A stretch of 14,783 bases of DNA from the IMG/VR virus record IMGVR_UViG_2541047897_000004, one strand, 5' to 3'. Positions 1-14,783 of this stretch are shown here, piece after piece. The translations under genes were made by a program, and so were the position numbers. The notes below the pieces were generated by a model. It saw only the letters and a program-made list of their open reading frames with translations. It was not told the origin of the DNA and ran no database searches. Origin of the DNA: a virus (taxonomy: Duplodnaviria > Heunggongvirae > Uroviricota > Caudoviricetes). Numbering within the stretch: the first letter of the stretch is position 1; each line of letters starts with the position of its first letter.

Positions 1-114
1 ATAAAACCGGGTGATGCAAAAGTAGCCATTTGATTCACAAGGCCATTGACGCATCGCCCGGTTAGTTTTAACCTTGTCCACCGTGATTCACGTTCGTGAA
101 CATGTCCTTTCAGG

Positions 115-190
115 GCCGATATAGCTCAGTTGGTAGAGCAGCGCATTCGTAATGCGAAGGTCGTAGGTTCGACTCCTATTATCGGCACCA
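115..190 (+). tRNA. thrW: tRNA-Thr (anticodon CGU)
   Basis: 76-nt cloverleaf read directly: acceptor stem GCCGATA/TATCGGC, D-loop AGTTGGTA, anticodon loop TTCGTAA with anticodon CGT (reads ACG), T-arm GGTTCGACTCC, encoded 3' CCA. Matches my recollection of enterobacterial thrW, a known integration site. Confidence 0.92.
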
Positions 191-192
191 TT
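172..192. repeat. attL-type direct repeat (3' end of tRNA-Thr, actcctattatcggcaccatt)
   Basis: 21-bp sequence identical to 13313-13333; overlaps the tRNA 3' end, as is typical for tRNA-targeting integrases. Confidence 0.85.
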
Positions 193-794
193 AAGAAAAT
201 CAATAACTTAGCTTAACTTCTCTAAGAAATTGTATCTTCTGTTATCACTTACAAACGCCTATACGTTGTTATGGGCTTTGGTAGTGTAACACGTATGGGC
301 GAGTAGTTCACAGGCTCAACCTCGTAACAAGTTCCTTTGAAGCTGGAAGACGTGCCACCGTCTCTAAACCTTCTACCAAAACTCTTAGCAAGATGTTCCA
401 CACCTGGCGCGGTGTCCAATGATGCTACACGTCGTGAGACGTTGCAGAGGATAAACAGGCTAAATGATGGGAAGAGTTTTAAGTGCATAGTGGATTAAAG
501 CCCACCTCTTCAAAACCTAACTTGATCGGGAAAGAATCAAGCTCTAGCACGGTTTCGTCCACCGGAGTACAACGGGTGCCTGATAAGAGAAGAACTGCTA
601 AGACTTCATAGCTTTTGTGAAAAAGCCCTTTTTAGTGGATACGCCTACGGCGCTTATTTTTTGGTATAACCATCAAAGGCGCTTTATGGCTCCTATTGTC
701 TTGAAAATGTATCTTTACTTGTATTGTGTTTTATGCGTAGCCTTCCTGTGTAGTATGTAACTTGTTAATTTTCATATGAATACAGAGGCACACG

Positions 795-947
795 ATGAAA
801 AACATTGCAGCTATCAAACGTAATAACCGCAAGATTCACGCTCGTAAGTTCCTGTCTACGCCAGAAGGAAAAGCCTGGCTAGAGCGTAAACAGCGAGAGA
901 ACGAAGAAAGAAAACTCCTTAGTGAGTTGAAATGGCTTAAGGATTGA
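795..947 (+). CDS. small basic protein, 50 aa (MKNIAAIKRNNRKIHARKF...), hypothetical
   Basis: ATG at 795 with GAGG 7 nt upstream; ORF below the 60-aa cutoff of the supplied track; lysine/arginine-rich. Function unknown. Confidence 0.35.
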   Translation: MKNIAAIKRNNRKIHARKFLSTPEGKAWLERKQRENEERKLLSELKWLKD

Positions 948-1013
948 ATCACCAGTAGGCGCATAACACATCCAGCGATCAAAGATGTGTTTATGCACCT
1001 GATAGTGAAATTA

Positions 1014-1172
1014 TTAAAGTCGTTTAGTTAACATCGCCATTGCTTGAGCAATAATTGCAACAGCGTCCATCTCTTCACTGGAAGCGATGCAAATGCGGTA
1101 ACTAATAGCCACAACGAATACATCAATAACGAGAAAGTGAATAGTGTGAAGATGTTTTGAAAGTAAATGCAT
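1014..1172 (-). CDS. small hydrophobic peptide, 52 aa (MHLLSKHLHTIHFLVIDVFVVAISYRICIA...), hypothetical
   Basis: ATG preceded by GGAGGA (4-nt spacer) on the minus strand; hydrophobic core consistent with one membrane helix; not in the ORF track because it is under 60 aa. Could be spurious. Confidence 0.25.
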   Translation of the reverse strand: MHLLSKHLHTIHFLVIDVFVVAISYRICIASSEEMDAVAIIAQAMAMLTKRL

Positions 1173-1512
1173 AACTTCCTCCGGTTTTACGATAGGAAGA
1201 TTAGAACATGCATTAAATGATGTTACAAGGGTGGTAATTTACCCTAATAGTCTACTATTCACCTCAATCTACGTCAACCAATATTTGATGTAGATTTAAT
1301 TTTCTTTTAAAAACAATGTGTTGCAATTTGTTGAATTTTGGGGTTAGGTTGTTTTTTGAACGTTTTCATCAAGTGTAAAGATACGTTTAGCCTTCATAGT
1401 GAGTTCAGTTACTGTCTTTTTCTCTGAAATCGGCGCAGACGTGATCAATGTTTAACGCGAAGATCAGCGGCGTCAGGTCCACGCAGCGACAATTCTCAAA
1501 TATCAGGAGGCA

Positions 1513-2064
1513 TTACGCTTCCTGCTCTTTCTTGATACGTTGCACCGTCTGTGTGCTGACACTGAAATCTTTTGCTACGCTCCGAATTGATCCACCATTC
1601 GCGAGAGCGGCAACAATTCCCGCTCGATCAATTGCTTTTCCATTACCACGTTTTGCTATACGTCCAGCGGCCTTAGCTGCGGCGATCCCCTCACGCTGCC
1701 GCTCAAGCATCATTTCACGTTCCATTTGTGCCACTGCTGCAAGCACTGTGAGCATCATATTCCCTGCGGGAGAGTTCTTCCCTGTCTTAAAGTCTTCTTT
1801 ATGGAAATGCACAGACACGCCGCGCTCTGTTAATTGCTCAACCGTTGCCAGTAGGTCGGCTGTATTACGGCAAAGTCGATCAATGCTGTGAACATGCAAA
1901 ACATCACCTTCACGCACATAGTTCATCATTGCCTCAAACTGTGGGCGCTGGGTATTCTTGCCTGACGCTTTATCTTCAAAGACTTTATCAAGAGTTACTC
2001 CAGCTAATTGACGGTCTGTGTTTTGTTGGACAGTCGATACCCTAATGTATCCAATATTAGCCAT
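1513..2064 (-). CDS. serine recombinase (resolvase/DNA-invertase family), 183 aa from the second Met
   Basis: N-terminal IGYIRVSTVQQNTDRQ catalytic-serine motif, DKASG, TVLAAVAQMEREMMLER and a C-terminal HTH (SIRSVAKDFSVSTQTVQRI), all hallmarks of small serine recombinases. AGGA lies 8 nt upstream of the second ATG (2064); the ORF track starts two codons earlier at 2070. Confidence 0.9.
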   Translation of the reverse strand: MANIGYIRVSTVQQNTDRQLAGVTLDKVFEDKASGKNTQRPQFEAMMNYVREGDVLHVHSIDRLCRNTADLLATVEQLTERGVSVHFHKEDFKTGKNSPAGNMMLTVLAAVAQMEREMMLERQREGIAAAKAAGRIAKRGNGKAIDRAGIVAALANGGSIRSVAKDFSVSTQTVQRIKKEQEA

Positions 2065-2593
2065 TTTCATTTTCCTTCTGTGTTGATTTGTGTGTAGTGA
2101 TTATTGATCGTGTTGATTAGGTGTGTAAAGGACTTTTTTCACTACGAAATTCGAAGGTTTTTAGTGTGGTGATTTAGCCTGCTTTATCACTACACGTCTT
2201 GCATGAGAATCATGTAGTTACATTTTGGTAAAATTAGCAAGCTATTAAATAGTGTGTTTATTTTGAAAAAATAATTTTTTGTTGCATTAAAGGAAACTTG
2301 TTCGACAAATAATAGATTGATTTTTAATCAACAATTTCTGATAGTGCTCTGTAAGCCGCATTACACAAGGCTTTGCGAAAGTGATGTAAAAGTGAAGAAA
2401 GTAAGAATTGCACTTTTAAGCTACTTTTCATTGAATTTTTAGTATGGAATTACATAAGGATTAATCATCAATTAATCTTGAATTTAAGCCTGTTTTAGAT
2501 GTTTAATTTTGGTAGCAAGAAACACTTTTAGAAGATCATTGCACAGATGTTATGTGATAAATGGATGTAACGGTAGGTCACTGTGAACTACCC

Positions 2594-2724
2594 CCACAGA
2601 ATTCTGTTATCCTTAACTTTTAAAGAAATATGCACCCTAACAGAAAACTGTTACCCCAACCCTAACAGAATTATGTTATACACCCCCACAGAAAACTGTT
2701 AGCCACCCCTACAGAATTTTGTTA
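2594..2724. promoter_or_regulatory. array of five 16-bp palindromic sites, consensus yAACAG-N4-CTGTTA (iteron/operator-like)
   Basis: Sites at 2594-2609, 2638-2653, 2663-2678, 2686-2701 and 2709-2724, each preceded by a C-tract (cacccc); centre-to-centre spacing 44, 25, 23, 23 bp; site 2 is a perfect palindrome TAACAGAAAACTGTTA. Confidence 0.6.
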
Positions 2725-2841
2725 CCTATTAGATCAACTATCAAACTACAATTAAATTATCTTTTATAAATTCTTTTATCTTTAAAGAATAATTATAGGG
2801 ATACCCGTTAGGGGAGTCCTTGACTATCCCTTAATCTATTG

Positions 2842-3215
2842 GCATTCGCCAGAACCTTGCACAAGTTAGAGTGTTAGTCGTTAGACTGCTTGTCATAACA
2901 CATAGTTTTTGTTTGTTGATGTTAGTTAGTAGATCTATGTTCGCTAATGCCGCTCACAACGAATATGTAATCTACTATGTGCAAATAGCCTACGGCTTGC
3001 GTAAGGCTAAATAGTCTTGCGCTGTGCGCAGAACGATAATTAACTAACTACCATCTAACGATTGAAATTTACTTGTGCAATAACCTGAGCGTAAGCGAAT
3101 GGTTGTTAGTGTCTATGCGCTGTGCGCTTCAATAGTTCCATTGATGAGGCTTACGCCAATCTAACGATCATCAATCATCTAAAATAAATTTCTTGTGCAA
3201 TGTTCTGGCGAATGC
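2842..3215. repeat. 24-bp inverted repeat pair (GCATTCGCCAGAACcTTGCACAAG at 2842-2865; CTTGTGCAAtGTTCTGGCGAATGC at 3192-3215) flanking a 326-bp segment
   Basis: The reverse complement of the left copy matches the right copy at 23 of 24 positions; the intervening segment holds a degenerate ~100-120-bp tandem duplication (gcgctgtgcgc, atctaacgat and cttgtgcaat each occur twice). Confidence 0.6.
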
Positions 3216-3695
3216 AATTAGAGTAGCGTTACCCCTTTGGGGATGCTAACGCATAACTATAGATCAACCATCAAACAGACAAAAAAGAAAAATATGGTTT
3301 AAAGATGTTAGGTAGTAGATGAGATTCTACCGCTTAAATCAAGCCGTAGGCGAGCTAAACGTATATAAGGCAGGGAAACACTTAGCGGTAATAGATTATC
3401 TCGTTATAGAGCTTCTGAGGAGCTTTACAGGTATTTTATAAGGTGTCTGAAATTAGAGTTAATCTATCATCTCCTTTTCATATACCTAACAAATACAAAA
3501 TAAGCCCCTTAAATAAGCCTCTGGCGAGCTAAACAGCCTCTACATAAGGGAATGTATTGTATTTATCAAAACCTCGTCAGAGGGCGTTTTAGAGCGTTTT
3601 AGAGAATAAGGAAGAATAGGAGTACTCGTAAGAGCACGAATTGCTAAGAAAAATTATAACACACTGAAAATGATCAATATTTTTATGGCTAGGGG

Positions 3696-3724
3696 TTGAC
3701 AAAAGCTTTTAGTCGTGGTAAAGT
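3696..3724 (+). promoter_or_regulatory. sigma70-like promoter candidate (TTGACA-17 bp-TAAAGT) for the small-protein operon
   Basis: Perfect -35 hexamer at 3696-3701, 17-bp spacer, -10-like TAAAGT at 3719-3724; about 120 bp upstream of the first ORF at 3848. Confidence 0.4.
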
Positions 3725-3847
3725 AATATTAGGGACAGAAAACATTCTTATCCTCTAAGTAATTAAACCAATGCACCGCACTTTGAAGCCCAACAAGGCT
3801 TGCAAGGTGTTTTTTCTTTTAACCAAATAGAATAAGGAGGCTAATTA

Positions 3848-4024
3848 ATGAAATATTTTACTCCACAGGATGTAGTTGAAGCCTGGAAACGTGGTGAGAT
3901 TAATCGTTTTAAAGTAAGGATGAACAGGAACACAGCGCGACGCTGTGGTTATCCAGAGCGTGAAAAATGCTTTGACGATGCACTAAAAATTATTGATGAA
4001 CTGCGTAAGGCAGAGAAAGAATAA
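3848..4024 (+). CDS. small protein, 58 aa (MKYFTPQDVVEAWKRGEINRFKVRMNRNTARRCGYPEREKC...), hypothetical
   Basis: ATG preceded by a consensus AAGGAGG 7 nt upstream; absent from the ORF track only because it is under 60 aa. Confidence 0.6.
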   Translation: MKYFTPQDVVEAWKRGEINRFKVRMNRNTARRCGYPEREKCFDDALKIIDELRKAEKE

Positions 4025-4045
4025 TAACAGGAGAAGGAGAAAACT

Positions 4046-4216
4046 ATGAGCGAAACTACAGAAAAGAAAAGACAACCACGCACTTGCTTTCATATTCCTG
4101 ATGAAGTATTTCAGGTGTTGTTTAAAGAAGCCAGAAGTAAACGTATCACTGTTACAGATTACATTCTTGATATGTTGAAAAGAGAGGCTGAAACACTCTC
4201 AAACAAAAGCAAGTGA
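4046..4216 (+). CDS. ribbon-helix-helix (CopG/Arc-like) DNA-binding protein, 56 aa
   Basis: GGAGAAGGAG upstream of the ATG; sequence RTCFHIPDEVFQVLFKEARSKRITVTDYILDMLKRE fits the beta-strand/helix/helix pattern of RHH regulators and antitoxins; under 60 aa so not in the track. Confidence 0.6.
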   Translation: MSETTEKKRQPRTCFHIPDEVFQVLFKEARSKRITVTDYILDMLKREAETLSNKSK

Positions 4217-4269
4217 TTTTTATCACCATAGTAGCGCCGTAGAGCGTGATTACATCAAGGAGATTTTTA

Positions 4270-4839
4270 ATGATTAATGAAGAACAATTTGTAAAAGTTC
4301 CTATGTGGATTCTAAAAATAAGCCAAGTAAACGGGCATAAATTTACAGATAGTGCTAAAAACCTTTACTGCTATTTGAGAGGGTTTGATCGTGCATTTCC
4401 CTCTTACGCTAAGATAGGCGATGTTTTTGGCATAACACCAAGAGCAGCAGAAGAAAGGGTTAAGAAATTGCTCGAAATGGGATTAATTATAAAAGATGCA
4501 CGACCAGGAAGCTCTAACCTTTATCGAGTGCTTGATATTCCAAAAGGAGAATCATCACTACCTGATCCTTCTGAGAAAGAAGACGAATCTAATGGAATAT
4601 TGAATGTTTCCGAAATCATCATTGAAGAAGAAACACAGGAATCAGAGTTCCCTGAGCGGCCCGAAATTTTTACTTGGCTTCTTTCCCTTGATAAGAAGAA
4701 ACCACCACACGAAGAAACAGAAGATTTTGTAAAACGAGCATTAGATTCAAAGAATATCTATCTTTGTGAAAATGATTTTGACTCTTTGATAATTGATCTC
4801 AAAAGTGAGAGCACAATATATGATTCACTACCCTTCTAA
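4270..4839 (+). CDS. winged-helix/HTH DNA-binding protein with acidic C-terminal tail (possible replication initiator or regulator), 189 aa from the ATG
   Basis: AAGGAG 6 nt upstream of the ATG at 4270 (the track's 4246 start is a GTG); N-terminal ...LYCYLRGFDRAFPSYAKIGDVFGITPRAAEERVKKLLEMGLI resembles wHTH domains of plasmid/phage replication-organiser proteins; C-terminus is rich in Asp/Glu. Family assignment is by eye only. Confidence 0.75.
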   Translation: MINEEQFVKVPMWILKISQVNGHKFTDSAKNLYCYLRGFDRAFPSYAKIGDVFGITPRAAEERVKKLLEMGLIIKDARPGSSNLYRVLDIPKGESSLPDPSEKEDESNGILNVSEIIIEEETQESEFPERPEIFTWLLSLDKKKPPHEETEDFVKRALDSKNIYLCENDFDSLIIDLKSESTIYDSLPF

Positions 4840-4848
4840 GGAGAATAA

Positions 4849-5118
4849 ATGACTTATAACATCACTATAGGAAACAAAACTATTGAAATAACTGAAAGCG
4901 GATACAACATTTTAAAATCTATTTTGGACATAGAGTTCTCACCCCCGACAGTGGTTAGCTTTTGTAGTTTAGGCGGCTACAGCGCACAACACGTGAATCA
5001 TTGGTTAAACCATTTTACATCGTTCGGTGTGCTGGATTATGAAGGGATTAACAGCACTACATTTCGTCTTTTGAAATTAAACAAAGATTTTGAATTGTTT
5101 ATCACAAACAATCAATAA
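4849..5118 (+). CDS. hypothetical protein, 89 aa
   Basis: AAGGAG 5 nt upstream of the ATG; co-directional and tightly packed with neighbours; no recognisable motif. Confidence 0.7.
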   Translation: MTYNITIGNKTIEITESGYNILKSILDIEFSPPTVVSFCSLGGYSAQHVNHWLNHFTSFGVLDYEGINSTTFRLLKLNKDFELFITNNQ

Positions 5119-5214
5119 CAACAGATCGGGCAATACATATGGCAAATGCATTTATGGCGATATTCATCGTAACTATGGCATTCAGTTTTTATAATCCACA
5201 TAAAAAGAGGGAAA

Positions 5215-5598
5215 ATGGGAAGAAAGAAAAAGAACAACTTAAAACGTATTGAAAAAAACAGTAATTTCAATTCAACAAGACAACGTCCACCGACACATAC
5301 CAATAACGAAATTCCAGGGGAAGAGATAATCTTTATTCTTGAAACAGAATCCCCTGAATTAAGTGATGAAGAATTAGAAATAATCCAATCAATGCCAGGC
5401 GTTTACTTTCGCCCAAGAACAAGAAAACAAACTATCATTTCTGATGGCACTCTGAAACGTTGGCAGCTTTTAGGGTTTAGCTCCTATCATCATTTTTTGG
5501 GATTTAACGCTTTCAATAATTGTGTAGGTGGTGCATCGGAAGTCGATCTGATGGCTCATTTAGAAGATACATTAGCTTCTAACAAACGTTCTAACTAA
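5215..5598 (+). CDS. hypothetical protein with basic N-terminus, 127 aa
   Basis: AGAGGG Shine-Dalgarno upstream of the ATG; N-terminal MGRKKKNNLKRIEK; no recognisable catalytic motif. Confidence 0.65.
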   Translation: MGRKKKNNLKRIEKNSNFNSTRQRPPTHTNNEIPGEEIIFILETESPELSDEELEIIQSMPGVYFRPRTRKQTIISDGTLKRWQLLGFSSYHHFLGFNAFNNCVGGASEVDLMAHLEDTLASNKRSN

Positions 5599-5655
5599 TA
5601 AAATGATGGGTGTATGTATAAGCGCCCAATGAAAATATTCGAAAAAGGAAAAATA

Positions 5656-5859
5656 ATGATTGGCTATATTCAAGAAACACAATTATTTCAGATGATCCTG
5701 TCTGATGCAAAAAACTATGCTGAGTTAATTCGGCTGGCAAAAGAAACAGAAGACTACGAAGCATTAGAGCGTTACCGTGATGAAGTGCTGACGCTCAAGA
5801 CACCTTTTAACATCGTATTGAATATGATTAATGATGCATTACAAGGAGAAGACGCATAA
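5656..5859 (+). CDS. small acidic protein, 67 aa (ORF extends to 5614 for 81 aa)
   Basis: AAGGAAA 5 nt upstream of the internal ATG at 5656; stop overlaps the next start (TAATG at 5857-5861), implying translational coupling; net negative charge. Confidence 0.6.
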   Translation: MIGYIQETQLFQMILSDAKNYAELIRLAKETEDYEALERYRDEVLTLKTPFNIVLNMINDALQGEDA

Positions 5860-6167
5860 TGGAAGAAGATATTAGCAATGCAATGGAACAACTTTTAGAT
5901 CTGACTATCTCACTACAAACAAGAATAAATCAAGCCTATTCAGATTTATGCGATTACACGCTCTCACAATGCGTTATTAGCTTAATGAAGGTGAATGTAA
6001 GCCTTGACGATTTTATCTCTCTGGTGAGCGATTTAGAGCTATCAGAGGACGATGCAAAACAGTGTAATCAAATCATCACAGACATCGCCACCACGTTAAA
6101 GGTTGCAAGTGAAGAGATTCAGCAATTAGTAGATGATTTAGCAAAAAGTGCTATTTTCTCTAAATGA
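5859..6167 (+). CDS. strongly acidic small protein, 102 aa (about 19 Asp/Glu versus 6 Lys/Arg)
   Basis: ATG overlaps the upstream stop; AGGAGA upstream; composition counted directly from the translation. Confidence 0.7.
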   Translation: MEEDISNAMEQLLDLTISLQTRINQAYSDLCDYTLSQCVISLMKVNVSLDDFISLVSDLELSEDDAKQCNQIITDIATTLKVASEEIQQLVDDLAKSAIFSK

Positions 6168-6443
6168 TAATGAAAATTATTTGCATTTATAATGATTTTG
6201 TTATATAATAATTTTAGGGGTAGATAAAAAGATTTTAGTTGGTGTTAATCCTTCTACTGTCATAAATCCCTGCATATGGAAGGTGATAGCCTCAAAGGTT
6301 GAGTGGCATTAACCTCTAACAAATATTACCTTCCATCTCTCAAGAAGTTTTAGAATAATCATAACTCCCTCTTTGATTGTTGATTGTTGATTGTTTCTAC
6401 GTTGTGTTGATGAATGTTGTTAGGCATTGTGCTTAATTTTGAT

Positions 6444-6490
6444 AAAAGCGGGTAGGTGTTATCTCCTTGCCCTTCCCGCTTTTATTTTTC
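6444..6490 (+). terminator. rho-independent terminator candidate downstream of the small-protein operon
   Basis: AAAAGCGGG (6444-6452) pairs with CCCGCTTTT (6475-6483), followed by ATTTTTC. Confidence 0.55.
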
Positions 6491-7028
6491 ATCTATGCTT
6501 ATCCTAAAGCTCCTTATTTTGTCCGAAAACATTAAAGAGCCTTACACTGATAGTTATATTTTATAACTATTTACTAACATCATTAAACTCTTATTTAATG
6601 ACGGAAGTTAGTAACAGAATAATCTATTAAGTTGTTGTCAAAAACAATCATCTGCATAGCGTTAGCCGCAAGCAGAGAGAGTTTAGCTAAGAATTGTGCA
6701 ATAACCTTTGGAAATATTGATAGCAAAACGGGTTTTATAGACTGCAAATCTATAATCTTTGGTTGTAAAAACGCTTTTTCTGAAACGGTAGATTATTGTT
6801 GGTGTAGTTAATTCTATTAAAATTTGATCTGTGAGTAGATGAGAATTGGAATAGTGATTCCTTAAAGCCTTACTTTGTTGCATCCACAGCAAAAACAGGC
6901 AGCGGTTAGCCACCGCACCCAGAATATCAGATCTTAGTGATTCCAGTGGCAAACTCCTAAGAGCCTTCCTTTCTAAGGTCTGATATTCACTCTTTAAGCA
7001 TATCATCAAGTATATTTAAAAAGTGTAT

Positions 7029-7056
7029 TTGCTGATATGTTTAATCCTCTTATAGT
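7029..7056 (+). promoter_or_regulatory. sigma70-like promoter candidate (TTGCTG-16 bp-TATAGT) upstream of the cargo block
   Basis: Hexamers read directly at 7029-7034 and 7051-7056; followed by a terminator-like hairpin (AAGCCCC 7091-7097 / GGGGCTT 7130-7136 plus T-run) in the leader. Confidence 0.3.
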
Positions 7057-7169
7057 TTAACTTATCAATTATGTAATTGCCCGCACGTTAAAGCCCCTTT
7101 GCTGGTCAGAATTAACCTCTTACGGCATTGGGGCTTTTTATTTGTCTGGCACTAACAGGAACGTTATTT

Positions 7170-7367
7170 ATGAAACAAGAAATGATTATCAGCAAAGACG
7201 GGGAAACGATGATTGTTAGTGATGAAAACCTCATTAAGGTTGCCGCACTGTTGGGAGTTACTCCCGAAAGTCTTCGTTCTACCACTGCTCAATTATTTAA
7301 ATCGGCTGATGCGGTTAGTCTTGCTGATGCCCTTAAATCTAAAATTAAACAACTGAAAGGAAAATAA
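7170..7367 (+). CDS. small protein, 65 aa, possible HTH (…LIKVAALLGVTPESLRS…)
   Basis: ATG at 7170 with AGGA 9 nt upstream; the track's longer form starts at a TTG (7128) that overlaps the leader hairpin. Confidence 0.55.
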   Translation: MKQEMIISKDGETMIVSDENLIKVAALLGVTPESLRSTTAQLFKSADAVSLADALKSKIKQLKGK

Positions 7368-7371
7368 TCTT

Positions 7372-7755
7372 ATGGCTAACCCATATGGAAAATTAAAAGC
7401 AGTGAATGCGGATAATTCCCGTTCACGCTGTAAGGTAGTAGCTTACGCTGCTGATCCAGTGCTGCAAGATCGCCTCGTCAAACTGGCTTCACCTCTCACT
7501 GACGATCTTATTGTCGGGGCTTTGCTGAAAGCCGATGGCACCAAAGCAACAACCGCATCTGATATTGCTCACGTAGTAGTTGAACCGGCTTATGAAGGAC
7601 AGGAAAGCGTAGTGGTTGCACATCCTACTTTCGTTATTCTGGCTGAAGATGGGATTGAATTTAACAGCATGGAAAAGGCAAGTGTTATTGCAAAACTGCA
7701 ATCTCTCGGCTTTGTAATTGCTGGTTATGAAGAACTTGCGATCCCTACGACTTAA
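7372..7755 (+). CDS. hypothetical protein, 127 aa
   Basis: AAGGAAAA upstream; 4-bp gap after the preceding gene. I compared it to lambda D and U type small virion proteins and could not confirm either. Confidence 0.8.
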   Translation: MANPYGKLKAVNADNSRSRCKVVAYAADPVLQDRLVKLASPLTDDLIVGALLKADGTKATTASDIAHVVVEPAYEGQESVVVAHPTFVILAEDGIEFNSMEKASVIAKLQSLGFVIAGYEELAIPTT

Positions 7756-7769
7756 CAAGGAAAATAATA

Positions 7770-8801
7770 ATGAATGATTTATCAACATATTTTGGCGTTA
7801 ATACTGCGGTAGTAACTCCATTTGCTTATGAGAATGCACTTAATACCCTGATTACTAATCTCGATCTGTTCGATGTGCAATATCATACAGAAAACAGCAT
7901 TCTTCTTACCGACCTGATTGATCAGTTTGTGCAGGTAGCTGGGGAAACCTCGCCTTACGCTCAAAGCGACTGGAACGCCTCTAAACGTCAGGAATGGTCA
8001 AACAAACTTTTCCAGATGAAACACGTCGGCAGTATTAACGCTGTTACTTCTCGTGACCTGGAACAATACAGCCGCCAATATCCAAACCGTTCTGATGCTA
8101 TGCTGGTAGCGGTTAATGATTTCTCTGAGGCTCATTACCGTTCACACGCAAACCGTGTTGAAGTGGATCTGATTACCGCGCTGCTGGGACTGAAAGTTGA
8201 ATCTGAATATGCCGGACAAGGTGATCTCGACTTCCTCGACGGTCAGGCTAAAACCACGGTACCCGCTATCGACTTTGCATCGACTACTGTTAACCCGTTC
8301 CTTGCTATTCGTAAAGCGGTGCGCTTACAGAGTGAAAAGCTGGGGTCTGGTCTTGCTGCAAAGCGAACTGGTGTAATTATCTTTGCTGCTGGCGCTGCTG
8401 CTGATGGTTTGTCATCTAACCCGCTGATCAGTGACATGGTGAAATATGCAGGTGATGCGAGTGCTACGGCCCTGTTTACCCGTATGGTTGATTCTAACCC
8501 AGCCTATGACTCTTTCCAGATTGGTGGGATCACTGTTATTGATGTGTCAATGTTTCCTGAGATTGTTGCTCACATCGGAGAGAACGGTTTCGCAATTGTC
8601 CCGGTAATGGATAAATCGGTACAGTGTTACCAGCTTCACACAGGCGTTGGTGTGCGTCATGCTGAGTTAGGTCAAGATGCCGTGTTGCATCACCAATATC
8701 TAATCAAGGATGAATTCCAATTCCCATCTGTGGTTACTGAGACATCTTATCTGCCAGTAAACAACATTCCGCAAGCTATCATCTTCGGATCTGCTGCGTA
8801 A
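7770..8801 (+). CDS. hypothetical protein, 343 aa (possibly virion-structural-like; unverified)
   Basis: AAGGAAAA upstream; long clean ORF with higher GC than the left half of the element (by eye); Gly/Ala-rich segment GVIIFAAGAAADG; no Walker A, HxH or other catalytic motif seen. Size and position are compatible with a capsid or major tail subunit, but I see no diagnostic motif. Confidence 0.8.
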   Translation: MNDLSTYFGVNTAVVTPFAYENALNTLITNLDLFDVQYHTENSILLTDLIDQFVQVAGETSPYAQSDWNASKRQEWSNKLFQMKHVGSINAVTSRDLEQYSRQYPNRSDAMLVAVNDFSEAHYRSHANRVEVDLITALLGLKVESEYAGQGDLDFLDGQAKTTVPAIDFASTTVNPFLAIRKAVRLQSEKLGSGLAAKRTGVIIFAAGAAADGLSSNPLISDMVKYAGDASATALFTRMVDSNPAYDSFQIGGITVIDVSMFPEIVAHIGENGFAIVPVMDKSVQCYQLHTGVGVRHAELGQDAVLHHQYLIKDEFQFPSVVTETSYLPVNNIPQAIIFGSAA

Positions 8802-8954
8802 TAAAGCATTAATAGACGATTCCCATCGTCTGGAAAATAAGGGTAAAGGGATTACCTAACCTGTAGGCGCAAATACAGTAACGAATCTCTTTGCCTTTTT
8901 TGTTTTTCTACTGTCTACAAACCCAAATAAAAATATATATGTGAGAGAAAACCA

Positions 8955-9152
8955 ATGAACACAGAAAATTCACAGGCATTAATTCTTAAGTCTGTAAAAG
9001 AACTGGCAGCTATTAGCGATGACTCAATAATCAATGTCAGTGCCTTATGCAGAATGCTTTCAATTGATGCAAATAATGTGCGGCAGCGTGTGTTTCAGAC
9101 TGGGTGCAGCACTTTTGAAGCAATTACATACTACTGTTCTAAAAAACAATAA
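8955..9152 (+). CDS. small protein, 65 aa, HTH-like (…INVSALCRMLSIDANNVRQRV…)
   Basis: ATG with GAGAGA upstream; helix-turn-helix-like segment; sits between the 343-aa and 633-aa genes. Confidence 0.55.
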   Translation: MNTENSQALILKSVKELAAISDDSIINVSALCRMLSIDANNVRQRVFQTGCSTFEAITYYCSKKQ

Positions 9153-9186
9153 CAAACAACAATCATAATACAGGGAAACAATTAGC

Positions 9187-11088
9187 ATGTTAGAAATTAG
9201 CGCCTCACGAATTAGTAATGTTGTGACATTTACCACTGATTTCAAGAGCTTACAGAAAGCTAAGAATGAAGTGGATAAGCTACAAAAGAAGATGCAGGGG
9301 ATCAAACCTGTGCAAGTGGCGGCAGCACGTCAGAAAGATTTACAGAGGCTGGGAAAAGAGATTCAGCGCCAGCATGATCAGCATGTTAAGCAGGCTGTTA
9401 AATCTGAGACACAGGCATCTAAAGCCAGCACTAAACAGAAGCTACAGGAAGCTAAAAACCTCGCTAAAGCACAGGCTAAACGAGCCTCAATTGCTGAAAA
9501 GGCAGAGATCAAGCGCCTTGCATCATATCGCCAGTTACAAGGCATCAAGAACAATTCCCGCTATGGCGAAGGGATGGATATTAAGAAATATCACGATGCT
9601 CTACGTTACATTAAGGAACAAACCCGCCTCTATGAATCCGGCGCTATATCGCAAGCGAAGATGAATGCCCTGATCCGTGACCGCATCACATTAGAAAGAC
9701 GAGCCGCAGCCGCTGCTACGCGTCGTAATGCTGCCGCTGGGGGGGTATATCCAGTTACTTCTAAGAAGCTCCACAAAGAAGGTGTTAGCGGCGGTGGCGC
9801 GTTAATGATGGGCGGTGTTGGTGGCATTATCGGCGGCGCTGCCGTTGGCTTAGGAAGTATGGCTGTATCCGCTGGAATGGAAAAAGCCCGTGAACGTATG
9901 GAATTGCAGAAGATGAGCGATCTGGTAGGTGCCGATAGCAATCAGGTGGCTGCAATGGTTAATTGGGGGAGGGCAAACGGTGTATCAAGTGCAAGCGCGG
10001 ACAAGACCACTGATAATATCAAAGACTTAAACGAACGCATTGGTCATCAAAGCCGAACTGCTGAATGGGATAGTAAGAAAAAAGAGTGGCGAGGCGGGGA
10101 AGGATCATTAAATGATATTCAGAATGCCTTTGCATGGAACAAAGATAAGATAGCTTCCTACCAGGGGCGACCGCTGCAACTCTTGCAAGACGTGGTGAGA
10201 GAAGGTGAACGCCGAGGAATGACTAAAGAAGCCATCATATCCCTGATCGAACCATTAGCAGACGATGCCAGCCATTATCTCAAGATGTTTTCCCGTGATG
10301 GGGAAGAGTTCCGTAAAACGATGGTTGATATGGAAAACAACGGGCAGCTACTGACAGAAGCACAGAAAGAGCAATATCGCGCAGCTAACAAGACAGCTAC
10401 AGCCTTTGACCGTCTGACAGATGGACTATCGAATCAGGCTATTTTGGGCTTCTTTGATGGCATAGCCAACATGCCAGCACTCAAACCGGAAGAAAGCAAA
10501 GCCTTACAGAATGCAGCTTATGGTGTTGGTGCATCGTTCGGGGATTTGGCTAAACAAGGCGCTGTATTACTGACCTCTATGACTTCTTACGGGAATCAAA
10601 TCACAAGCTGGATTAATAAACATCTTAGCCGTGGTGAGAATGATAACCGACCTGAGACACAAAAGGTTATGGACGCTGTTACAGATGGGGAATGGTCGCC
10701 ATCAACGATTATCAATGAAGGTATTCGTTATGCAACTGGACTCGATACGAAAGATGTAGGGCGTATTGTGCGCGGTGAGGAAACACAGTCCGGCGTTCCA
10801 GGGTGGTGGACTGATTTAATTAATGGCAATGCTAACAGCTACGGATCAACCCTTGTTGCACGTAAAGCAGAAGCCTATCAGCCGACTGTAAGCCTACAAC
10901 GTCAATACGCAACCCCTGTTAACGTGAATGCACAGGTTACGGTGCCGAGTGATATGATCTCTGTTAACGTCATCCCTAACGGTCCCGGCTTTCAGGATTT
11001 AATCCGCACTGAGATCAGAGCGAACAACAATCAGTTTAGTTCGAATCTGATTCTTAGCACGTTGTCAGGACAGAGTAGCGTTAACTAA
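9187..11088 (+). CDS. large coiled-coil protein with Gly-rich hydrophobic segment, 633 aa (tape-measure-like; unverified)
   Basis: N-terminal ~180 aa is K/Q/A/E-rich with heptad-like character; GGGALMMGGVGGIIGGAAVGLGSMAVSAGM hydrophobic glycine-zipper segment; no nuclease or ATPase motif. This architecture is common in phage tail tape-measure proteins, but I cannot confirm homology. Confidence 0.8.
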   Translation: MLEISASRISNVVTFTTDFKSLQKAKNEVDKLQKKMQGIKPVQVAAARQKDLQRLGKEIQRQHDQHVKQAVKSETQASKASTKQKLQEAKNLAKAQAKRASIAEKAEIKRLASYRQLQGIKNNSRYGEGMDIKKYHDALRYIKEQTRLYESGAISQAKMNALIRDRITLERRAAAAATRRNAAAGGVYPVTSKKLHKEGVSGGGALMMGGVGGIIGGAAVGLGSMAVSAGMEKARERMELQKMSDLVGADSNQVAAMVNWGRANGVSSASADKTTDNIKDLNERIGHQSRTAEWDSKKKEWRGGEGSLNDIQNAFAWNKDKIASYQGRPLQLLQDVVREGERRGMTKEAIISLIEPLADDASHYLKMFSRDGEEFRKTMVDMENNGQLLTEAQKEQYRAANKTATAFDRLTDGLSNQAILGFFDGIANMPALKPEESKALQNAAYGVGASFGDLAKQGAVLLTSMTSYGNQITSWINKHLSRGENDNRPETQKVMDAVTDGEWSPSTIINEGIRYATGLDTKDVGRIVRGEETQSGVPGWWTDLINGNANSYGSTLVARKAEAYQPTVSLQRQYATPVNVNAQVTVPSDMISVNVIPNGPGFQDLIRTEIRANNNQFSSNLILSTLSGQSSVN

Positions 11089-11161
11089 GTTTAACGATAA
11101 CTAATAATAAAGCGGGGGCAATATTTATTGCTTTCCGCTCATTACACAAGGATTAATATAA

Positions 11162-11818
11162 ATGGCTATCAAAGAAAGTCAGATCAACAGCACATCTAAC
11201 ATTAATACATCTAACAGCAAGGTTAAATCTGATAACGGATTTGCCATTATATGTAGCAACCTGAATAACGAGAATGCATCAACGATAGCCAGTTATAAAG
11301 CTATTACTTTTGACGCTGTTCCGGCAACTAAGGTTTCACGTTCTGCCGATGTTACATCGTATCCTGTGCAGGATGGTAATGATGTATCTGATAATGTCAG
11401 GATCAAGAATAATAAACTTATGCTTTCAGGCATTATTACAGAAACACCATTAGCATTACGTGGTGATATGCTATCAAGTGCAGGGGTGAACGGTAACAGG
11501 TGTTCACAGGCTATTGCTTATCTTGATGAAATAATGAATGCCAGACAGCCTATTATTGTAAGCACAGAGCATAAGACGTTTGATAATATGATTCTGACAG
11601 GCATTGACTACGAATATAAAACAGAATCAGCTTTACAGTTTGATTTGCAGTTCGAACAGATAAGATTAGTGAGTTATGCAACTACTAACGCTATTGCTGT
11701 AAAGACCGCATCACCTAAGAGCACAGGCGGACAGGTAAAAAGCCAAGTGCCAACCAATGCAGGAACAGCCAGCACCACTAAAGACACCCTTCCGACGTAT
11801 GACGGAGAAGTGAAATAA
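11162..11818 (+). CDS. hypothetical protein, 218 aa (possibly tail-associated; unverified)
   Basis: AAGGA upstream; Ser/Thr/Asn-rich termini; follows the 633-aa gene in the position a distal-tail protein would occupy if that gene is a tape measure. Confidence 0.75.
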   Translation: MAIKESQINSTSNINTSNSKVKSDNGFAIICSNLNNENASTIASYKAITFDAVPATKVSRSADVTSYPVQDGNDVSDNVRIKNNKLMLSGIITETPLALRGDMLSSAGVNGNRCSQAIAYLDEIMNARQPIIVSTEHKTFDNMILTGIDYEYKTESALQFDLQFEQIRLVSYATTNAIAVKTASPKSTGGQVKSQVPTNAGTASTTKDTLPTYDGEVK

Positions 11819-11852
11819 TCCCTATAAAGAACGATGTAGCGAGATAATCATA

Positions 11853-11888
11853 AAAGAGGCTACCAATCTATATTGAAGCCTCTTTATT
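11853..11888. terminator. bidirectional hairpin terminator between convergent genes
   Basis: AAAGAGGCT (11853-11861) pairs with AGCCTCTTT (11877-11885), 15-nt loop, T-run after; lies between the stop of the 218-aa gene (plus) and the stop of the integrase (minus). Confidence 0.55.
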
Positions 11889-11892
11889 ACGT

Positions 11893-13170
11893 CTATAGCG
11901 TTGTTTTACGCCTTAAATTTGATTTTTTATTGATTGATAAGCCTTTCTCTATTTCAGGGTAGCGTAAAAGCTCAATATATTTTTTAAGCTCTATTGGAGA
12001 AGCTGCATTTTTGCTATATGTGCGGAATGTTTCTGTATTGCCGCGTGTATGGCCCAGGAGAAGGGCGATCCTGTCTTCTGGAATTTGATTTCGATCAAGA
12101 AGCTGTGCTACTCCGTGTCTCAGAGAATGAAACACCTTCCTTTCTGTTCCCTTTTCCCCTAAAGCCTTTCGTTTAGCTCTTGTAAATCTCTGCGTATGCC
12201 ACGTGGAACGTTTACCATCAGCACGCTCTGTAATGCTGGCGTGATAGAACAAAAAGCCATTGTGAGGCTTTTCACGCAGCGACAACACCAACGGAGTGAT
12301 AAGGCTATGCACAGGCACAAGACGTGCCGCAGCTTTCGTTTTTCCCTGTGTGATTTCAAAACACAGCACACCTTCGATCTCTTTCACATCGTCTATTGTG
12401 AGACTTGCTATCTCATTGATCCGCATACCTGTATATAAACCGATAAGACACAAAGCCATCATTTCTTTGTTTTCTGCTGAATTACCGGAAAATACTTGCA
12501 ACACCTGCAATAGCTCTTTGTTAGAAAATGCCTCGTAGCTCTCTCTACTTTGTGCCACATCAAGCCTATGCCCTCGCCAGGGGGAGAGCGCCCTTTCTGG
12601 CGCATCGTGGTAACGTGATGAAGCTAATTCCCATAGCTGGGCCATTGGGCTGATATAATTTGCAATTGATTGTTGTGAAAGAGTTTTTTGCATGTGTTCA
12701 ATCCAGCCTGTAACAGTGGTGCGGCTTACATCTTGCAATGCAATATCAGGCTTTTTACGGTAGGAGAGAAACATCTCTACCGCTTTTCTTGCCTTAGCTA
12801 AAGTGGCTGGCTTCTTCTTCGTGCTGTTAATTGTCAGGTAGATTTCAAGAATTTTAAGCAATGACGGACACGAAGACGCTGTATCTTGCATTCTGGTAGC
12901 TGTTTTGGCGTATTTAGCCTTACTGCGTAACAGTTCCAGCGTGTTTTCTATTGTGCTGTTTACAGGGGCAACACTCTCCCGTAAGCAATGGTATTCATCT
13001 GCAATCTGATCACGCTTTCTACGTGCAACACGAAGATTACTTGTGTGCAGACTTCTGACAAACGTCCTTTTTCCTTCAAAAAAGGGCTGCATATACACAG
13101 GCAGCGTGATCCTTAAATAGTAGTTACCGTAAGAATCACAGATTAAGTATTGGTTAGGCTTGTATCTCAT
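11893..13170 (-). CDS. tyrosine recombinase / phage-type integrase, 425 aa from the RBS-supported ATG
   Basis: C-terminal catalytic region with HSLRHGVAQ and LLGHTRGNTETFRTYSK (R/H/R/Y tetrad pattern); adjacent to the right att repeat. GGAG lies 5 nt upstream of the ATG at 13170; the track's longer ORF starts at a TTG (13257) with no Shine-Dalgarno. Confidence 0.9.
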   Translation of the reverse strand: MRYKPNQYLICDSYGNYYLRITLPVYMQPFFEGKRTFVRSLHTSNLRVARRKRDQIADEYHCLRESVAPVNSTIENTLELLRSKAKYAKTATRMQDTASSCPSLLKILEIYLTINSTKKKPATLAKARKAVEMFLSYRKKPDIALQDVSRTTVTGWIEHMQKTLSQQSIANYISPMAQLWELASSRYHDAPERALSPWRGHRLDVAQSRESYEAFSNKELLQVLQVFSGNSAENKEMMALCLIGLYTGMRINEIASLTIDDVKEIEGVLCFEITQGKTKAAARLVPVHSLITPLVLSLREKPHNGFLFYHASITERADGKRSTWHTQRFTRAKRKALGEKGTERKVFHSLRHGVAQLLDRNQIPEDRIALLLGHTRGNTETFRTYSKNAASPIELKKYIELLRYPEIEKGLSINKKSNLRRKTTL

Positions 13171-13312
13171 AAAATCTCCGGCTAAAGTGTCGGAGCGTTT
13201 GTAATGTGAAAATTGATTGTGACGCATAGAAAATGATGATTTTTCTATAAGATTCAATCAATTAGTAATGGTCGTAGGTGATGGCATTAACACGAGATTA
13301 ATCGAGTGTTTT

Positions 13313-13333
13313 ACTCCTATTATCGGCACCATT
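13313..13333. repeat. attR-type direct repeat (partial tRNA-Thr 3' end)
   Basis: Exact 21-bp copy of 172-192; a further 10-bp tRNA match (ggtcgtaggt, 13270-13279 versus 159-168) lies upstream, separated by a 33-bp insertion. Confidence 0.85.
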
Positions 13334-13485
13334 CTAACGTCTCCCCAAGTCTACTCAAGTATTTAAAAACCTCTTATAATCAGTATATTAATGCCCCTTT
13401 TAGTCTTTTGACGTCTATTTAAGTACCCCAAACTCTACAAGCAATTGAGGGGATTTGCTGTTCAGTTTAGTGGAGATACCCCCAA

Positions 13486-13824
13486 GTGAAACTCAATGCC
13501 CGTCAAATAGACACTGCCAAGCCAAAAGAGAAGGCTTACAAGTTGGCTGATGGTGGTGGTCTGTACCTCCTGGTAAAACCTGGTGGAGGAGAATATTGGC
13601 GTCTCAAGTATCGTGTAGCTGGTAAAGAGAAGCTGTTAGCACTAGGTGTGTATCCTGAGGTCACCTTAGCTGATGCTCCTGCAAAACTTGAAGAAGCTAA
13701 AAGAGGTATCTCTGGGGGAATCGATCTGATGGAAGTGAAGCGAGAGGAAAAGATTGCCCGGGAAACGCAGTTAAACAACACCTTCAAAGATATTGCCCTT
13801 GAGTGGCACAGTAACAAATTATAA
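13486..13824 (+). pseudogene. truncated N-terminal fragment of a P4-type (tRNA-associated) integrase, 112 codons
   Basis: Translation …ARQIDTAKPKEKAYKLADGGGLYLLVKPGGGEYWRLKYRVAGKEKLLALGVYPEVTLADA… matches the conserved arm-binding N-terminus of P4-family integrases as I recall them; the ORF stops after 112 codons with no catalytic domain and AT-rich non-coding DNA follows. Confidence 0.7.
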
Positions 13825-14258
13825 TCACAATAATAGTGTATATAATTATACATTGTATGCTTGGTAATCATATAATGATAAAAGCTTCCGATAATCAGTA
13901 TGAGATTTGTCCTTAAACTCCTAGACATGCTTTTCTAAATCTTCCAATGGTATATGTCCATTTATACAAATAAAATTCTAGTGATAAATACCTTCAGGTA
14001 TGATTAGACAACATCTTTATTCGATGGGGGTTAATCTATATTTGATATCTTTCTTTTAAATAACAACGCCATTAAAAACGCTTTGTTTAATGACGTTTTT
14101 TTATTGTTTCCTGTATAAAGCCTAACCAGCATAAACATTGGTGGCTCTTATGCTCATTGTAATTAAATGAGAGTGTGATTAATGTCTTTATATATTCAGG
14201 TAGTTATTCTCTCCAGAAGAATACATTGTAAGAAGATGACTGTTAGTATGTTTTAACA

Positions 14259-14753
14259 TCAATTAACATTAAGGTTTGATAATAATTTTTTGTTGGCGAG
14301 TTCAAATGTTTTCATTTCATCATCTGATAGCCCGCTCCAGATTTTCTTTAGCATTACATTTTGAGTGTTTATTAGTTTTTGAGCAAGTGTAACTCCGTCA
14401 GGGGTTAAGCAAATACTTTTGCTTCGACGATCGTTTTTATTATTAATTCTTTTGGCAATATTCTTTTTTTCTAATTTGTCTATGATGTGTGTGATGTTTG
14501 TTTTGGAGAATTGTAACTCCTTGTAAATATCAGAAGGGGACTGACAATAATCATCAGACATATATAATGAAACTAACACCATAAATGTTGAAGTGTTTAT
14601 TCTATACTCGCTCAATTCATTTTCTATAATACTCTGGATTTTGTCATTTACTCTAATATATAAGTGTATTAACAGACTCTCCTGAGCCGGGTATGCCGGA
14701 TTTTTGATTTTTTTGTAGTTTGTTATAGTTTTTAATAAATCTATATTATTCAT
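14259..14753 (-). CDS. MarR-family winged-helix transcriptional regulator (PapX/SfaX-like 17-kDa type?), 164 aa from the internal Met
   Basis: Wing motif …RINNKNDRRSKSICLTPDGVTLAQ… (DRR…LT..G) typical of MarR regulators; the ORF is open to the window edge at 14783, so the true start could be upstream. The PapX-like subfamily is a recollection, not verified. Confidence 0.75.
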   Translation of the reverse strand: MNNIDLLKTITNYKKIKNPAYPAQESLLIHLYIRVNDKIQSIIENELSEYRINTSTFMVLVSLYMSDDYCQSPSDIYKELQFSKTNITHIIDKLEKKNIAKRINNKNDRRSKSICLTPDGVTLAQKLINTQNVMLKKIWSGLSDDEMKTFELANKKLLSNLNVN

Positions 14754-14783
14754 AATTCCACCACACGGCAAAAGAAAACTCAT

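Follow-up and report, generated by a model that had tools for sequence, protein, structure and literature searches.

The locus studied here raises the question of what a tightly packed block of plus-strand genes, at positions 7170 to 11818, does for the mobile element in which it lies. This block occupies the centre of a 14,783-nucleotide stretch of DNA (IMG/VR record IMGVR_UViG_2541047897_000004, assigned to the Caudoviricetes), and the whole stretch is hereafter called the window. The window is Escherichia coli chromosome, comprising the end of proA, the tRNA gene thrW, an integrated island, an integrase remnant, a gene for a MarR protein and the beginning of the vat region. In a preliminary description the block had been presented as cargo with no assignable function. 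We consider it probable that the block is the morphogenesis module of a satellite that has virulent Stephanstirmvirinae, the ~150-kb myoviruses of the phAPEC8 and phi92 types, as its helpers.

Head and tail proteins encoded by the block

The genes of the block and the hairpins associated with them are as follows (E, expect value; z, z-score of folding; aa, amino acids).

7170-7367, plus strand: 65a, 65 aa, putative remnant of a helper-type scaffold (a segment corresponding to about residues 40-79 of phAPEC8 gp116 and a basic C-terminus)
7372-7755, plus strand: cement protein decorating the head, lambda gpD / P21 SHP type, 127 aa (AlphaFold2 (AF2) model and Foldseek)
7770-8801, plus strand: major capsid protein, probably HK97-fold and of the lambda gpE-like family, 343 aa (PF03864 of homologues; Foldseek)
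8832-8908 (approximately), plus strand: hairpin that resembles a terminator and has a T run, located between the head and tail units (z = -3.0)
8955-9152, plus strand: 65b, helix-turn-helix (HTH)-like, 65 aa, position conserved in the family
9187-11088, plus strand: tape measure protein, 633 aa (phrog_16051, E 1e-71; phAPEC8 gp104; Phi92_gp134)
11162-11818, plus strand: tube initiator or Dit-like inner baseplate protein, 218 aa (Pfam Dit_like, E 5e-28)
11853-11888, no strand: hairpin between the convergent tube-initiator and integrase genes, AAAAGAGGCT...AGCCTCTTT (z = -2.8)

The tail proteins tie the block to one group of phages. The 633-aa protein, which had already been described as tape-measure-like, aligned over residues 197-632 with phAPEC8 gp104 (32% identity, E 5e-62) and matched Phi92_gp134 in the solved tail structure PDB 21vq (E 1e-48). 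The hydrophobic segment that had been read as a glycine zipper is present as a Gly-rich stretch at about residues 200-230. Homology over most of its length and the position of its gene before that of the tube initiator identify this protein as a tape measure of the Stephanstirmvirinae type. Among 50,697 phage records it found 134 matches, almost all of them Stephanstirmvirinae-type phages of ~150 kb, and the tape measures of three divergent members of the element family, this one among them, each matched 134 records, almost all of this type. The 218-aa protein scored 98.2 bits against Dit_like (PF21821), for which the curated cut-off is 24.2. It was 61-64% identical to the product of the gene right after the tape measure gene in Phapecoctavirus, with 64% identity to phAPEC8 gp103, and it matched Phi92_gp135 (PDB 21vq_N, E 2e-68) as well as the 'tube initiator protein' of PhiTE (E 7e-7).

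For the first three proteins of the block (65, 127 and 343 aa), a Pfam scan gave no match and PHROGs gave weak hints only. Homologues of the 343-aa protein with 42-49% identity bear PF03864 and are named major capsid protein E. Furthermore, when its AF2 model (predicted local distance difference test score (pLDDT) 56, predicted template-modelling score 0.58) was compared with the PDB, all of the 20 best Foldseek matches were HK97-fold capsid proteins, at template-modelling (TM) scores of ~0.45; the matching folds included the ICP1 coat protein (E 1e-8) and the capsid proteins of PhiTE, Bas63, Sf14 and lambda (gpE). The protein aligned from its N-terminus with phAPEC8 gp114 (23% identity, E 7e-4), a Yersinia member of its family aligned with gp114 over the full length (E 2e-14), and outer family members reached E 1e-21. 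This small family forms 60 clusters (50% identity) in a set of 1.84 billion proteins. The 343-aa protein is probably a distant sister of the Stephanstirmvirinae capsid protein.

The AF2 model of the 127-aa protein (pLDDT 59) was matched best by phage decoration proteins, which accounted for about 17 of the 20 best Foldseek matches in the PDB, the other three being the gpD-fusion construct 5mfd. TM scores ranged from 0.5 to 0.63, and the matches comprised Sf14 (E 6e-5, TM 0.58), Bas63, PhiTE, P21 SHP and lambda gpD, so that the models of the 127- and 343-aa proteins pointed to the same phages. In addition, there was a weak match to phrog_2680, the top PDB sequence match was Phi92_gp123, and the capsid gene follows directly downstream, an arrangement also seen in phAPEC8. 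A gpD-like fold, as modelled, and a capsid-adjacent gene place the protein among the decoration proteins of the gpD/SHP type. A profile of its family (173 clusters at 90% identity; all those with a source name are Enterobacterales proteins called 'hypothetical') was also run against PDB sequences; this search was swamped by spurious ABC-transporter matches, and the assignment comes from the fold search.

The two small proteins are less firmly placed. At the position of 65a, the Yersinia element encodes a 96-aa protein that is 50% identical over 60 aa to the N-terminus of phAPEC8 gp116 (E 5e-14; phrog_2970, E 1e-15), and gp116 is, by its position, the scaffold of that phage. When residues 1-100 of gp116 were searched with jackhmmer against the 1023 open reading frames (ORFs) of all family loci, only ORFs just upstream of the decoration gene were recovered, and 65a of the window entered the profile at E 0.003. 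An hhalign comparison of the 65a family with gp116 picked the right segment at a non-significant E of 0.15. These results are suggestive, not firm, evidence that 65a is a drastically shortened scaffold. The 65b family gave sub-threshold HTH matches only (HTH_17, Sigma70_r4 and wHTH in Pfam and the PDB) and no similarity to gp105 of the helper. It may be a regulator, an excisionase-like protein or a tail-assembly accessory; a role as tail-assembly chaperone, considered on the model of the gene order in PLEs (elements that resemble phage-inducible chromosomal islands), found no support. An HTH-like appearance had been ascribed to two small proteins of the block, and it persists, below threshold, for the second, whereas the first resembles a scaffold remnant. 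With the profile and fold searches combined, capsid protein, decoration protein, tape measure and tube initiator, four of the block's six products, have confident structural assignments, contrary to the view that no function could be assigned, while 65a was matched weakly and 65b below threshold.

Gene order supports the same connection. In phAPEC8, the head genes run portal, protease gp117 (phrog_3017), gp116 (371 aa, phrog_2970), decoration gp115 and capsid gp114, and the later genes run chaperone gp106, gp105, tape measure gp104 and gp103. The block is thus the scaffold-decoration-capsid stretch of phAPEC8 joined to its tape measure-tube initiator stretch, with the order of the helper kept. 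Five co-directional genes had been described here, and their coordinates and direction were confirmed, but the count rises to six: the gene at 8955-9152 had been missed in the 385-nt interval between the 343- and 633-aa genes, and it is conserved in the family and annotated in RefSeq. The hairpin that precedes it shares 73 conserved nt with a second E. coli element type (L006), and the capsid gene of phAPEC8 likewise has a terminator after it. From this gene and this hairpin it follows that the block consists of two units, 65a-127-343 and 65b-633-218. The ORFs of the block recur intact in relatives of the element from about ten genera and are therefore real genes rather than fortuitous reading frames. 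RefSeq calls them 'hypothetical' throughout in near-identical islands, except for the last, a 'phage baseplate protein', and annotates the block genes of E. coli ZJ3920 likewise. In some RefSeq genomes the Prokaryotic Genome Annotation Pipeline puts the misleading label 'cell envelope integrity TolA family protein' on 9187-11088, which is probably due to the Ala/Lys-rich coiled-coil N-terminus of the tape measure.

The higher GC content of the block, noted by eye in the preliminary description, was borne out (44.1% versus 37.2% in the left arm). Its interpretation as a sign of separate acquisition had to be rejected: the decoration and capsid genes of phAPEC8 are equally GC-rich (45.4% and 46.7% in a genome of 39%), GC at third codon positions is low in the block genes (30-44%), and the block is the core of the family. 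The excess reflects Ala/Gly-rich structural proteins and not a separate origin. As for transcription signals, a promoter consensus scan found no site in the supposed promoter-like leader at 7029-7140, and promoter-like sites were no commoner than in shuffled sequence. The hairpin at 11853-11888 is real, and its reading as a bidirectional terminator is plausible.

The integrative element and a phage nuclease built from Rep domains

The element as a whole has the following features outside the block.

115-190, plus strand: tRNA-Thr gene thrW (ARAGORN and Rfam), into which the element is integrated; the 3' end of the gene forms the left att copy, 167-192
193-13333, no strand: whole integrative element, putative satellite, 13.1 kb (empty-site junction match)
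1513-2070, minus strand: small serine recombinase of the invertase/resolvase type, 185 aa (Pfam Resolvase, E 1e-38; phrog_125, E 2e-62)
2590-2724, no strand: five iterons (ACCCyhACAGAAwwnTGTTA) followed by an AT-rich stretch, putative replication origin and predicted target of the chimeric phage nuclease
4270-4839, plus strand: Rep, with a winged-helix RepO-like DNA-binding domain (phrog_270, E 1e-8; Pfam HTH_36); the ORF is open from 4246 and the RefSeq start is the ATG at 4270
11893-13257, minus strand: tyrosine integrase with a DUF6538 arm-type N-terminus (Pfam Phage_integrase, E 3e-17; DUF6538, E 4e-9; phrog_1, E 1.5e-32)
13308-13333, no strand: right copy of the att repeat (direct-repeat and empty-site searches)

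A link between this element and the phages themselves was found in the rep gene. Window positions 4229-4583, starting 41 nt before the Rep start codon, are 99.2% identical at the nucleotide level to the Phapecoctavirus Mt1B1_P17, where the shared stretch forms the start of gp053, a gene for a protein of 328 aa (L017:3042-4028). Residues 1-105 of gp053 are 99% identical to residues 9-113 of the window Rep, that is, to its winged helix. The N-terminal DNA-binding domain of the L006 Rep is matched by residues 119-226 with 75% identity over 114 aa, and identity seems higher in the winged-helix core when the alignment is judged by eye. Residues 230-326 form an endonuclease domain (phrog_681, E 2e-18; Pfam MUG113, E 4e-4, just below the cut-off; T5orf172, E 0.037), the relatives of which are annotated as GIY-YIG or homing endonucleases. 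The same protein is encoded by phage BI-EHEC (L018), and gene 184 of the Justusliebigvirus inny (L019:1438-2541) encodes a variant with a third kind of N-terminal winged helix and a linker resembling that of the L006 Rep. This complete architecture was seen in only some three phages of the collection, all of them Stephanstirmvirinae.

The near-identity of the rep DNA implies that element and phages have recently exchanged DNA in the same cells and, further, that the phage suffers when the element replicates. The isolation host of P17, Mt1B1, was not seen among the 60 best block-carrying genomes. A precedent exists in ICP1, where the T5orf172 nuclease Odn has an N-terminus 42% identical to the RepA_N protein of PLE and cuts the PLE origin in an iteron-dependent manner (PMC8263062). 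With a DNA-binding domain derived from a satellite Rep and a nuclease of the T5orf172/GIY-YIG type, gp053 appears to be an Odn-like gene, and cleavage of the element's origin is predicted. Odn has one Rep-derived domain (42%), whereas gp053 has two in tandem (99% and 75%). This suggests modular, 'multi-specific' anti-satellite nucleases, in which each tandem domain would match a different satellite lineage.

The boundaries of the element were established from empty sites. A 26-nt direct repeat (167-192 and 13308-13333), the left copy of which is the 3' end of thrW, brackets 13.1 kb. When window positions 1-192 were joined to 13334-13533, the resulting 392 nt were present at 100% identity in 686 E. 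coli genomes, and the carriers of the empty thrW site among the complete genomes searched included Nissle 1917 and ATCC 11775. The exact junction in 686 genomes shows 193-13333 to be a precise site-specific insertion. Read from its left end, the element contains the serine recombinase, 1.8 kb without ORFs, an operon of small genes with Rep, the block and the tyrosine integrase. Portal, protease, terminase, sheath, tube, wedge, fibre and lysis genes were not found among the ORFs of the island (Pfam and PHROGs; two short minus-strand ORFs lay outside the scan), and the absence of portal, terminase, protease and tail fibre that the preliminary description had reported is thereby confirmed. The island thus has its own integrase and att sites and is without the genes for an autonomous particle; it cannot build a particle alone.

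Related elements of 10-14 kb occur in about ten genera of Enterobacterales, with protein identities of 24-71%. Their hosts are Klebsiella (L003-L005), E. coli (the second type, L006), Citrobacter, Buttiauxella, Kluyvera, Phytobacter, Scandinavium, Raoultella and Yersinia, the element of the latter (L016, ~10.5 kb) being inserted between cysB and acnA. The members occupy different chromosomal sites and share a layout of small recombinase, ORF-free stretch, small genes with Rep, then 65a, decoration, capsid, 65b and tape measure, in some cases a tube initiator, and finally the integrase. Only the window type, L006 and L013 have the tube initiator. Far from being cargo, the block is the conserved core of the family, and the replication arm is the part that is swapped. 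At a coverage of at least 80%, the block was found in 86 of 5426 complete E. coli genomes and the whole window in 38; the block therefore travels with different arms. The hosts of the island include avian pathogenic E. coli (APEC) strains of serotypes O1:K1 and O2:K1, the kind used to isolate phAPEC8.

Several block copies have been disrupted. On a 166-kb plasmid of APEC E19019 (NZ_CP126938.1, 29492-36754) a copy is interrupted by IS3-family elements, and IS3 or IS66 elements have split several chromosomal copies. A small recombinase is found in all members of the family, at the other end from the integrase, but its kind differs: the window (1513-2070, minus strand) and L006 have a serine invertase with 100% aa identity between them, the Klebsiella element L003 has a tyrosine recombinase of 182-186 aa (L003:3835-4395), and the Yersinia protein at L016:4130-4678 would be one too, judged by length and position only. 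A possible task of these enzymes during replication of the element is to resolve multimers or to form concatemers.

With a RepO-like protein, iterons and an AT-rich stretch, the element appears to have its own replication module. L006 differs from the window both in the Rep DNA-binding domain and in its repeats, and the iteron zone is the sole part of the ORF-free region that is not kept there, so that iterons co-vary with Rep type. Replication modules are also exchanged more widely in the family: L007:6038-7522 and L015:6422-7891 encode a P-loop protein (GSGKS) of 489-494 aa in place of the RepO-like protein at 4270-4839 of the window, and the block is unchanged.

To the right of the iterons, ~1.1 kb (2740-3847) contain no ORF, and substitutions relative to L006 show no 3-base periodicity. 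Positions 3040-3139 are 100% identical and 3340-3440 are 98% identical to L006, whereas the neighbouring proteins share just 29-71%. This region contains the repeated motifs CTTGTGCAAT and TGCGCTGTGCGC and a 34-nt inverted repeat (2832-2865 and 3192-3225), and the minus strand of 2880-3240 folds at z = -2.95. An Rfam search gave no match in 2740-3847, the tRNA being the sole match overall. Regulatory RNAs, operators or a packaging site could reside here. PLE has a conserved regulatory small RNA, SviR.

A probable satellite of virulent phages and the competing explanations

How the block might serve a satellite can be pictured from the identities of its proteins. Once a helper infects, the element would excise and use the iteron origin for its replication. 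A small shell for ~13 kb would be built by the head unit (decoration and capsid proteins with the presumed scaffold remnant) on the helper portal, with the protease and terminase of the helper. The tail unit, made up of the HTH protein, the tape measure and, where present, the tube initiator, would replace the tail-nucleating core of the helper; chimeric tails completed with helper tube, sheath, baseplate and fibres would result, as experiments have demonstrated for PLE and ICP1. Both substitutions would divert helper parts and lower the yield of the helper. The phage nuclease would be the counter-move, in which the stolen Rep domain binds the satellite iterons and the origin is cut. We give this specific picture of a small head and a chimeric tail about even chances. 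We lean slightly towards the proposal that these elements are the first satellite family of virulent Stephanstirmvirinae coliphages, a counterpart of PLE and ICP1, with a small capsid of their own and a chimeric tail, and that the phages oppose them with a bivalent origin-directed nuclease made from the Reps of two lineages.

Several observations weigh against a satellite of these phages. The decoration and capsid proteins of the island are remote from those of the helper (23% identity or undetectable), and their assembly on the helper portal is an assumption. Both AF2 models are of low confidence because the underlying alignments are shallow, although their fold matches were consistent. The link of 65a to the scaffold includes an iterative-profile step of E ~0.01 as its weakest. 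No clear size logic is apparent for the tail unit, since the tape measure of the island has 633 aa and that of the helper 662 aa. Furthermore, the non-coding stretches 2071-3847 and 6168-7371 had no match in the 50,697 phage records, and no shared pac or cos site was seen. The IMG/VR matches come from isolate genomes, as predicted prophage regions, or from one metagenome contig; they have host flanks and are not virion DNA. Support for helper-dependent induction, packaging and transfer of the island is indirect and comes from the homology to helper parts and from the phage nuclease.

Conceivably, the island never leaves the chromosome, or replicates without being packaged, and defends its host population by poisoning phage assembly, its divergent structural proteins acting as dominant-negative decoys that abort particles. 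The homologues are indeed those of exactly the helper parts that nucleate or size head and tail, the phage nuclease shows that the element harms these phages, and interference with tail assembly is known in satellites and prophages (Tai systems, PMC11364771; Rta of PLE11). However, a complete capsid and cement protein, an integrase, att sites, a Rep/origin module, a size like that of P4 and of PICIs (phage-inducible chromosomal islands), and a spread over many genera and sites give the element a transmissible look. A PADLOC search (E <= 0.01) of the six block proteins and four left-operon proteins gave no match, which also removes support from the known-defence-system reading offered in the preliminary description. 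Since interference and transfer are coupled in known systems, assembly poisoning is in part a sub-case of the satellite that we favour, and as an explanation in its own right we hold it to be unlikely.

The distance of the capsid and decoration proteins from phAPEC8 could instead mean that the element is a satellite, or a defective phage, of some other, unsampled helper (for instance, a temperate one whose head and tail genes are related), and that the likeness to Stephanstirmvirinae reflects shared ancestry. Consistent with this, the best tblastn match of the capsid in the phage collection was an Aeromonas phage (E 3e-3), and the small capsid family has no close phage member. Such a helper is hard to reconcile with a tube initiator that is 61-64% identical to Phapecoctavirus and a tape measure whose matches in the phage records are almost all of the Stephanstirmvirinae type, and the 99.2% DNA identity with Mt1B1_P17 and the Rep domains in three Stephanstirmvirinae nucleases imply co-infection; we see a slim chance for it. 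That the island is a decayed prophage with its other genes deleted might be suggested by structural genes beside an integrase at a tRNA gene and by a second integrase remnant just past attR. Yet about ten genera carry this compact, intact gene set, at differing sites and with 24-71% protein identity, so that it must be old and maintained and not the product of a recent deletion; the insertion is precise and att-bounded with integrase, Rep and iterons intact, and the homologous phages are virulent and ~150 kb in size. Virulent 150-kb phages of this kind are not known to lysogenise. This conserved architecture contradicts decay, which we regard as very improbable, and of the three readings that had been put forward for the block initially, the satellite is the one that the evidence favours.

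Relation to known satellites and further features of the locus

By their defining gene sets, capsid-forming PICIs (cf-PICIs), PICIs, P4-like elements and PLEs all exclude the island, which would work most like a PLE. Like the island, PLE is integrative and falls in the range of 13-18 kb, and it exploits a virulent myovirus, as the island would. Both have a modular Rep/iteron origin and a helper with a chimeric nuclease of Rep-domain plus T5orf172 type. PLE carries a large serine recombinase and a RepA_N initiator. The island, in contrast, has a tyrosine integrase, a RepO-like winged helix and an E. coli host, and its genes do not amount to the PLE set; protein similarity to PLE was not seen, but no search aimed at it was made. 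PLE replaces the tail assembly chaperone, the tape measure and BhuB of ICP1 with its own versions (20%, 20% and 41% identity), which are found in virions and are needed for transduction, and BhuB, a small hub protein whose gene lies beside that of the tape measure, is present only in some PLE variants (PMC12987554). The tape measure and tube initiator of the island are 32% and 64% identical to those of the helper, and the tube initiator, comparable to the PLE hub, occurs in some members only. PLE has no capsid protein of its own and remodels the ICP1 coat with the external scaffold TcaP (title of PDB 8g1r), whereas the island has a capsid.

With cf-PICIs the island shares the status of an Enterobacteriaceae satellite with its own HK97-fold capsid and a satellite-specific head. 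[quoted passage not shown] The island deviates from them by having capsid, decoration and scaffold remnant only, plus two tail genes. Gram-negative PICIs comprise an integrase, an AlpA-type regulator, a primase-replicase and TerS or Rpp-type redirection, without structural genes. The island gave no AlpA, primase-replicase or TerS match, and structural genes are present. P4 resembles the island as an enterobacterial element of similar size with a tyrosine integrase and its own decoration protein (Psu). It has ~11.6 kb and small heads made of the capsid protein of its temperate helper P2 with the external scaffold Sid, as well as an alpha primase-helicase and cos. No Pfam or PHROG match to the P4 core genes (Psu, Delta, Sid, alpha, epsilon) was found in the island proteins; cos was outside this search.

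The pathogenicity islands of Staphylococcus aureus (SaPIs) are unrelated to the island in hosts, helpers and sequences, and offer two parallels. CpmB of SaPIs is a very short scaffold-like protein. It is a precedent for a scaffold remnant of 65 aa. Ccm of SaPIbov5 is a satellite homologue of the helper capsid protein that alters capsid size and shape (PMC8569155). It is found only in the pentamers of a shell of helper protein; the island has a cement protein along with a capsid protein of ~23% identity to that of the helper, which suggests a shell that would be made wholly by the satellite. For the head of the island, cf-PICIs and Ccm are looser precedents than PLE is for its tail. The EPIPs of Mycolicibacterium, described in a preprint of December 2025, are reported to encode a major capsid protein and a tape measure and to have altered head size and tail length (PMC12822802). 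Unlike the island, they have TerS, a head-tail adaptor and stopper, a serine integrase and a temperate siphovirus helper, are unrelated to it in sequence and host, and have been isolated as particles. A satellite with both capsid and tape measure has been reported before only for these EPIPs, with a different gene set. In open-access and bioRxiv literature searched by topic, phage names and protein accessions, there was no description of Stephanstirmvirinae satellites or of these proteins.

To our knowledge, satellites of virulent phages are known in detail only in Vibrio (PLE with ICP1, and PICMI). If our interpretation is right, there is a comparable system in E. coli, Klebsiella, Enterobacter, Citrobacter and Yersinia, among them the organisms with the best genetics, and its partial head set and partial tail set would represent a new hijacking design between PLE, with a tape measure but no capsid gene, and cf-PICIs, which make the whole head and take their tails entire. 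Origin-directed immunity against satellites would have its second, independent example in the phage nuclease with its near-identical tandem Rep domains, and Rep-domain matches would offer a ready route for pairing satellites with helpers from sequence alone. Phages of the phAPEC8 and phi92 types are candidates for therapy against APEC and extraintestinal pathogenic E. coli; the island could explain resistance or low phage yield in such strains, and a gp053-type nuclease would mark phages that escape it. In hundreds of genomes the annotation can be corrected for five genes called 'hypothetical' and for one product labelled 'TolA family protein'.

The left operon also encodes, at 5215-5598, a protein of 127 aa that is kept in most family members with 29-50% identity; it had no Pfam, PHROG or PADLOC match and is a candidate regulator or anti-helper effector. 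The 1-kb gap between this operon and the block contains a clean terminator hairpin (6442-6485) and an unannotated ORF of 108 aa with a TTG start (6683-7009, minus strand). Beyond attR, window positions 13334-14783 carry a truncated remnant of an integrase with an Arm-DNA-binding domain (13486-13824) and a MarR-family gene from 14259, followed by vat in the reference genome. The element has been inserted ahead of an older thrW island, the region that bears the Vat autotransporter.

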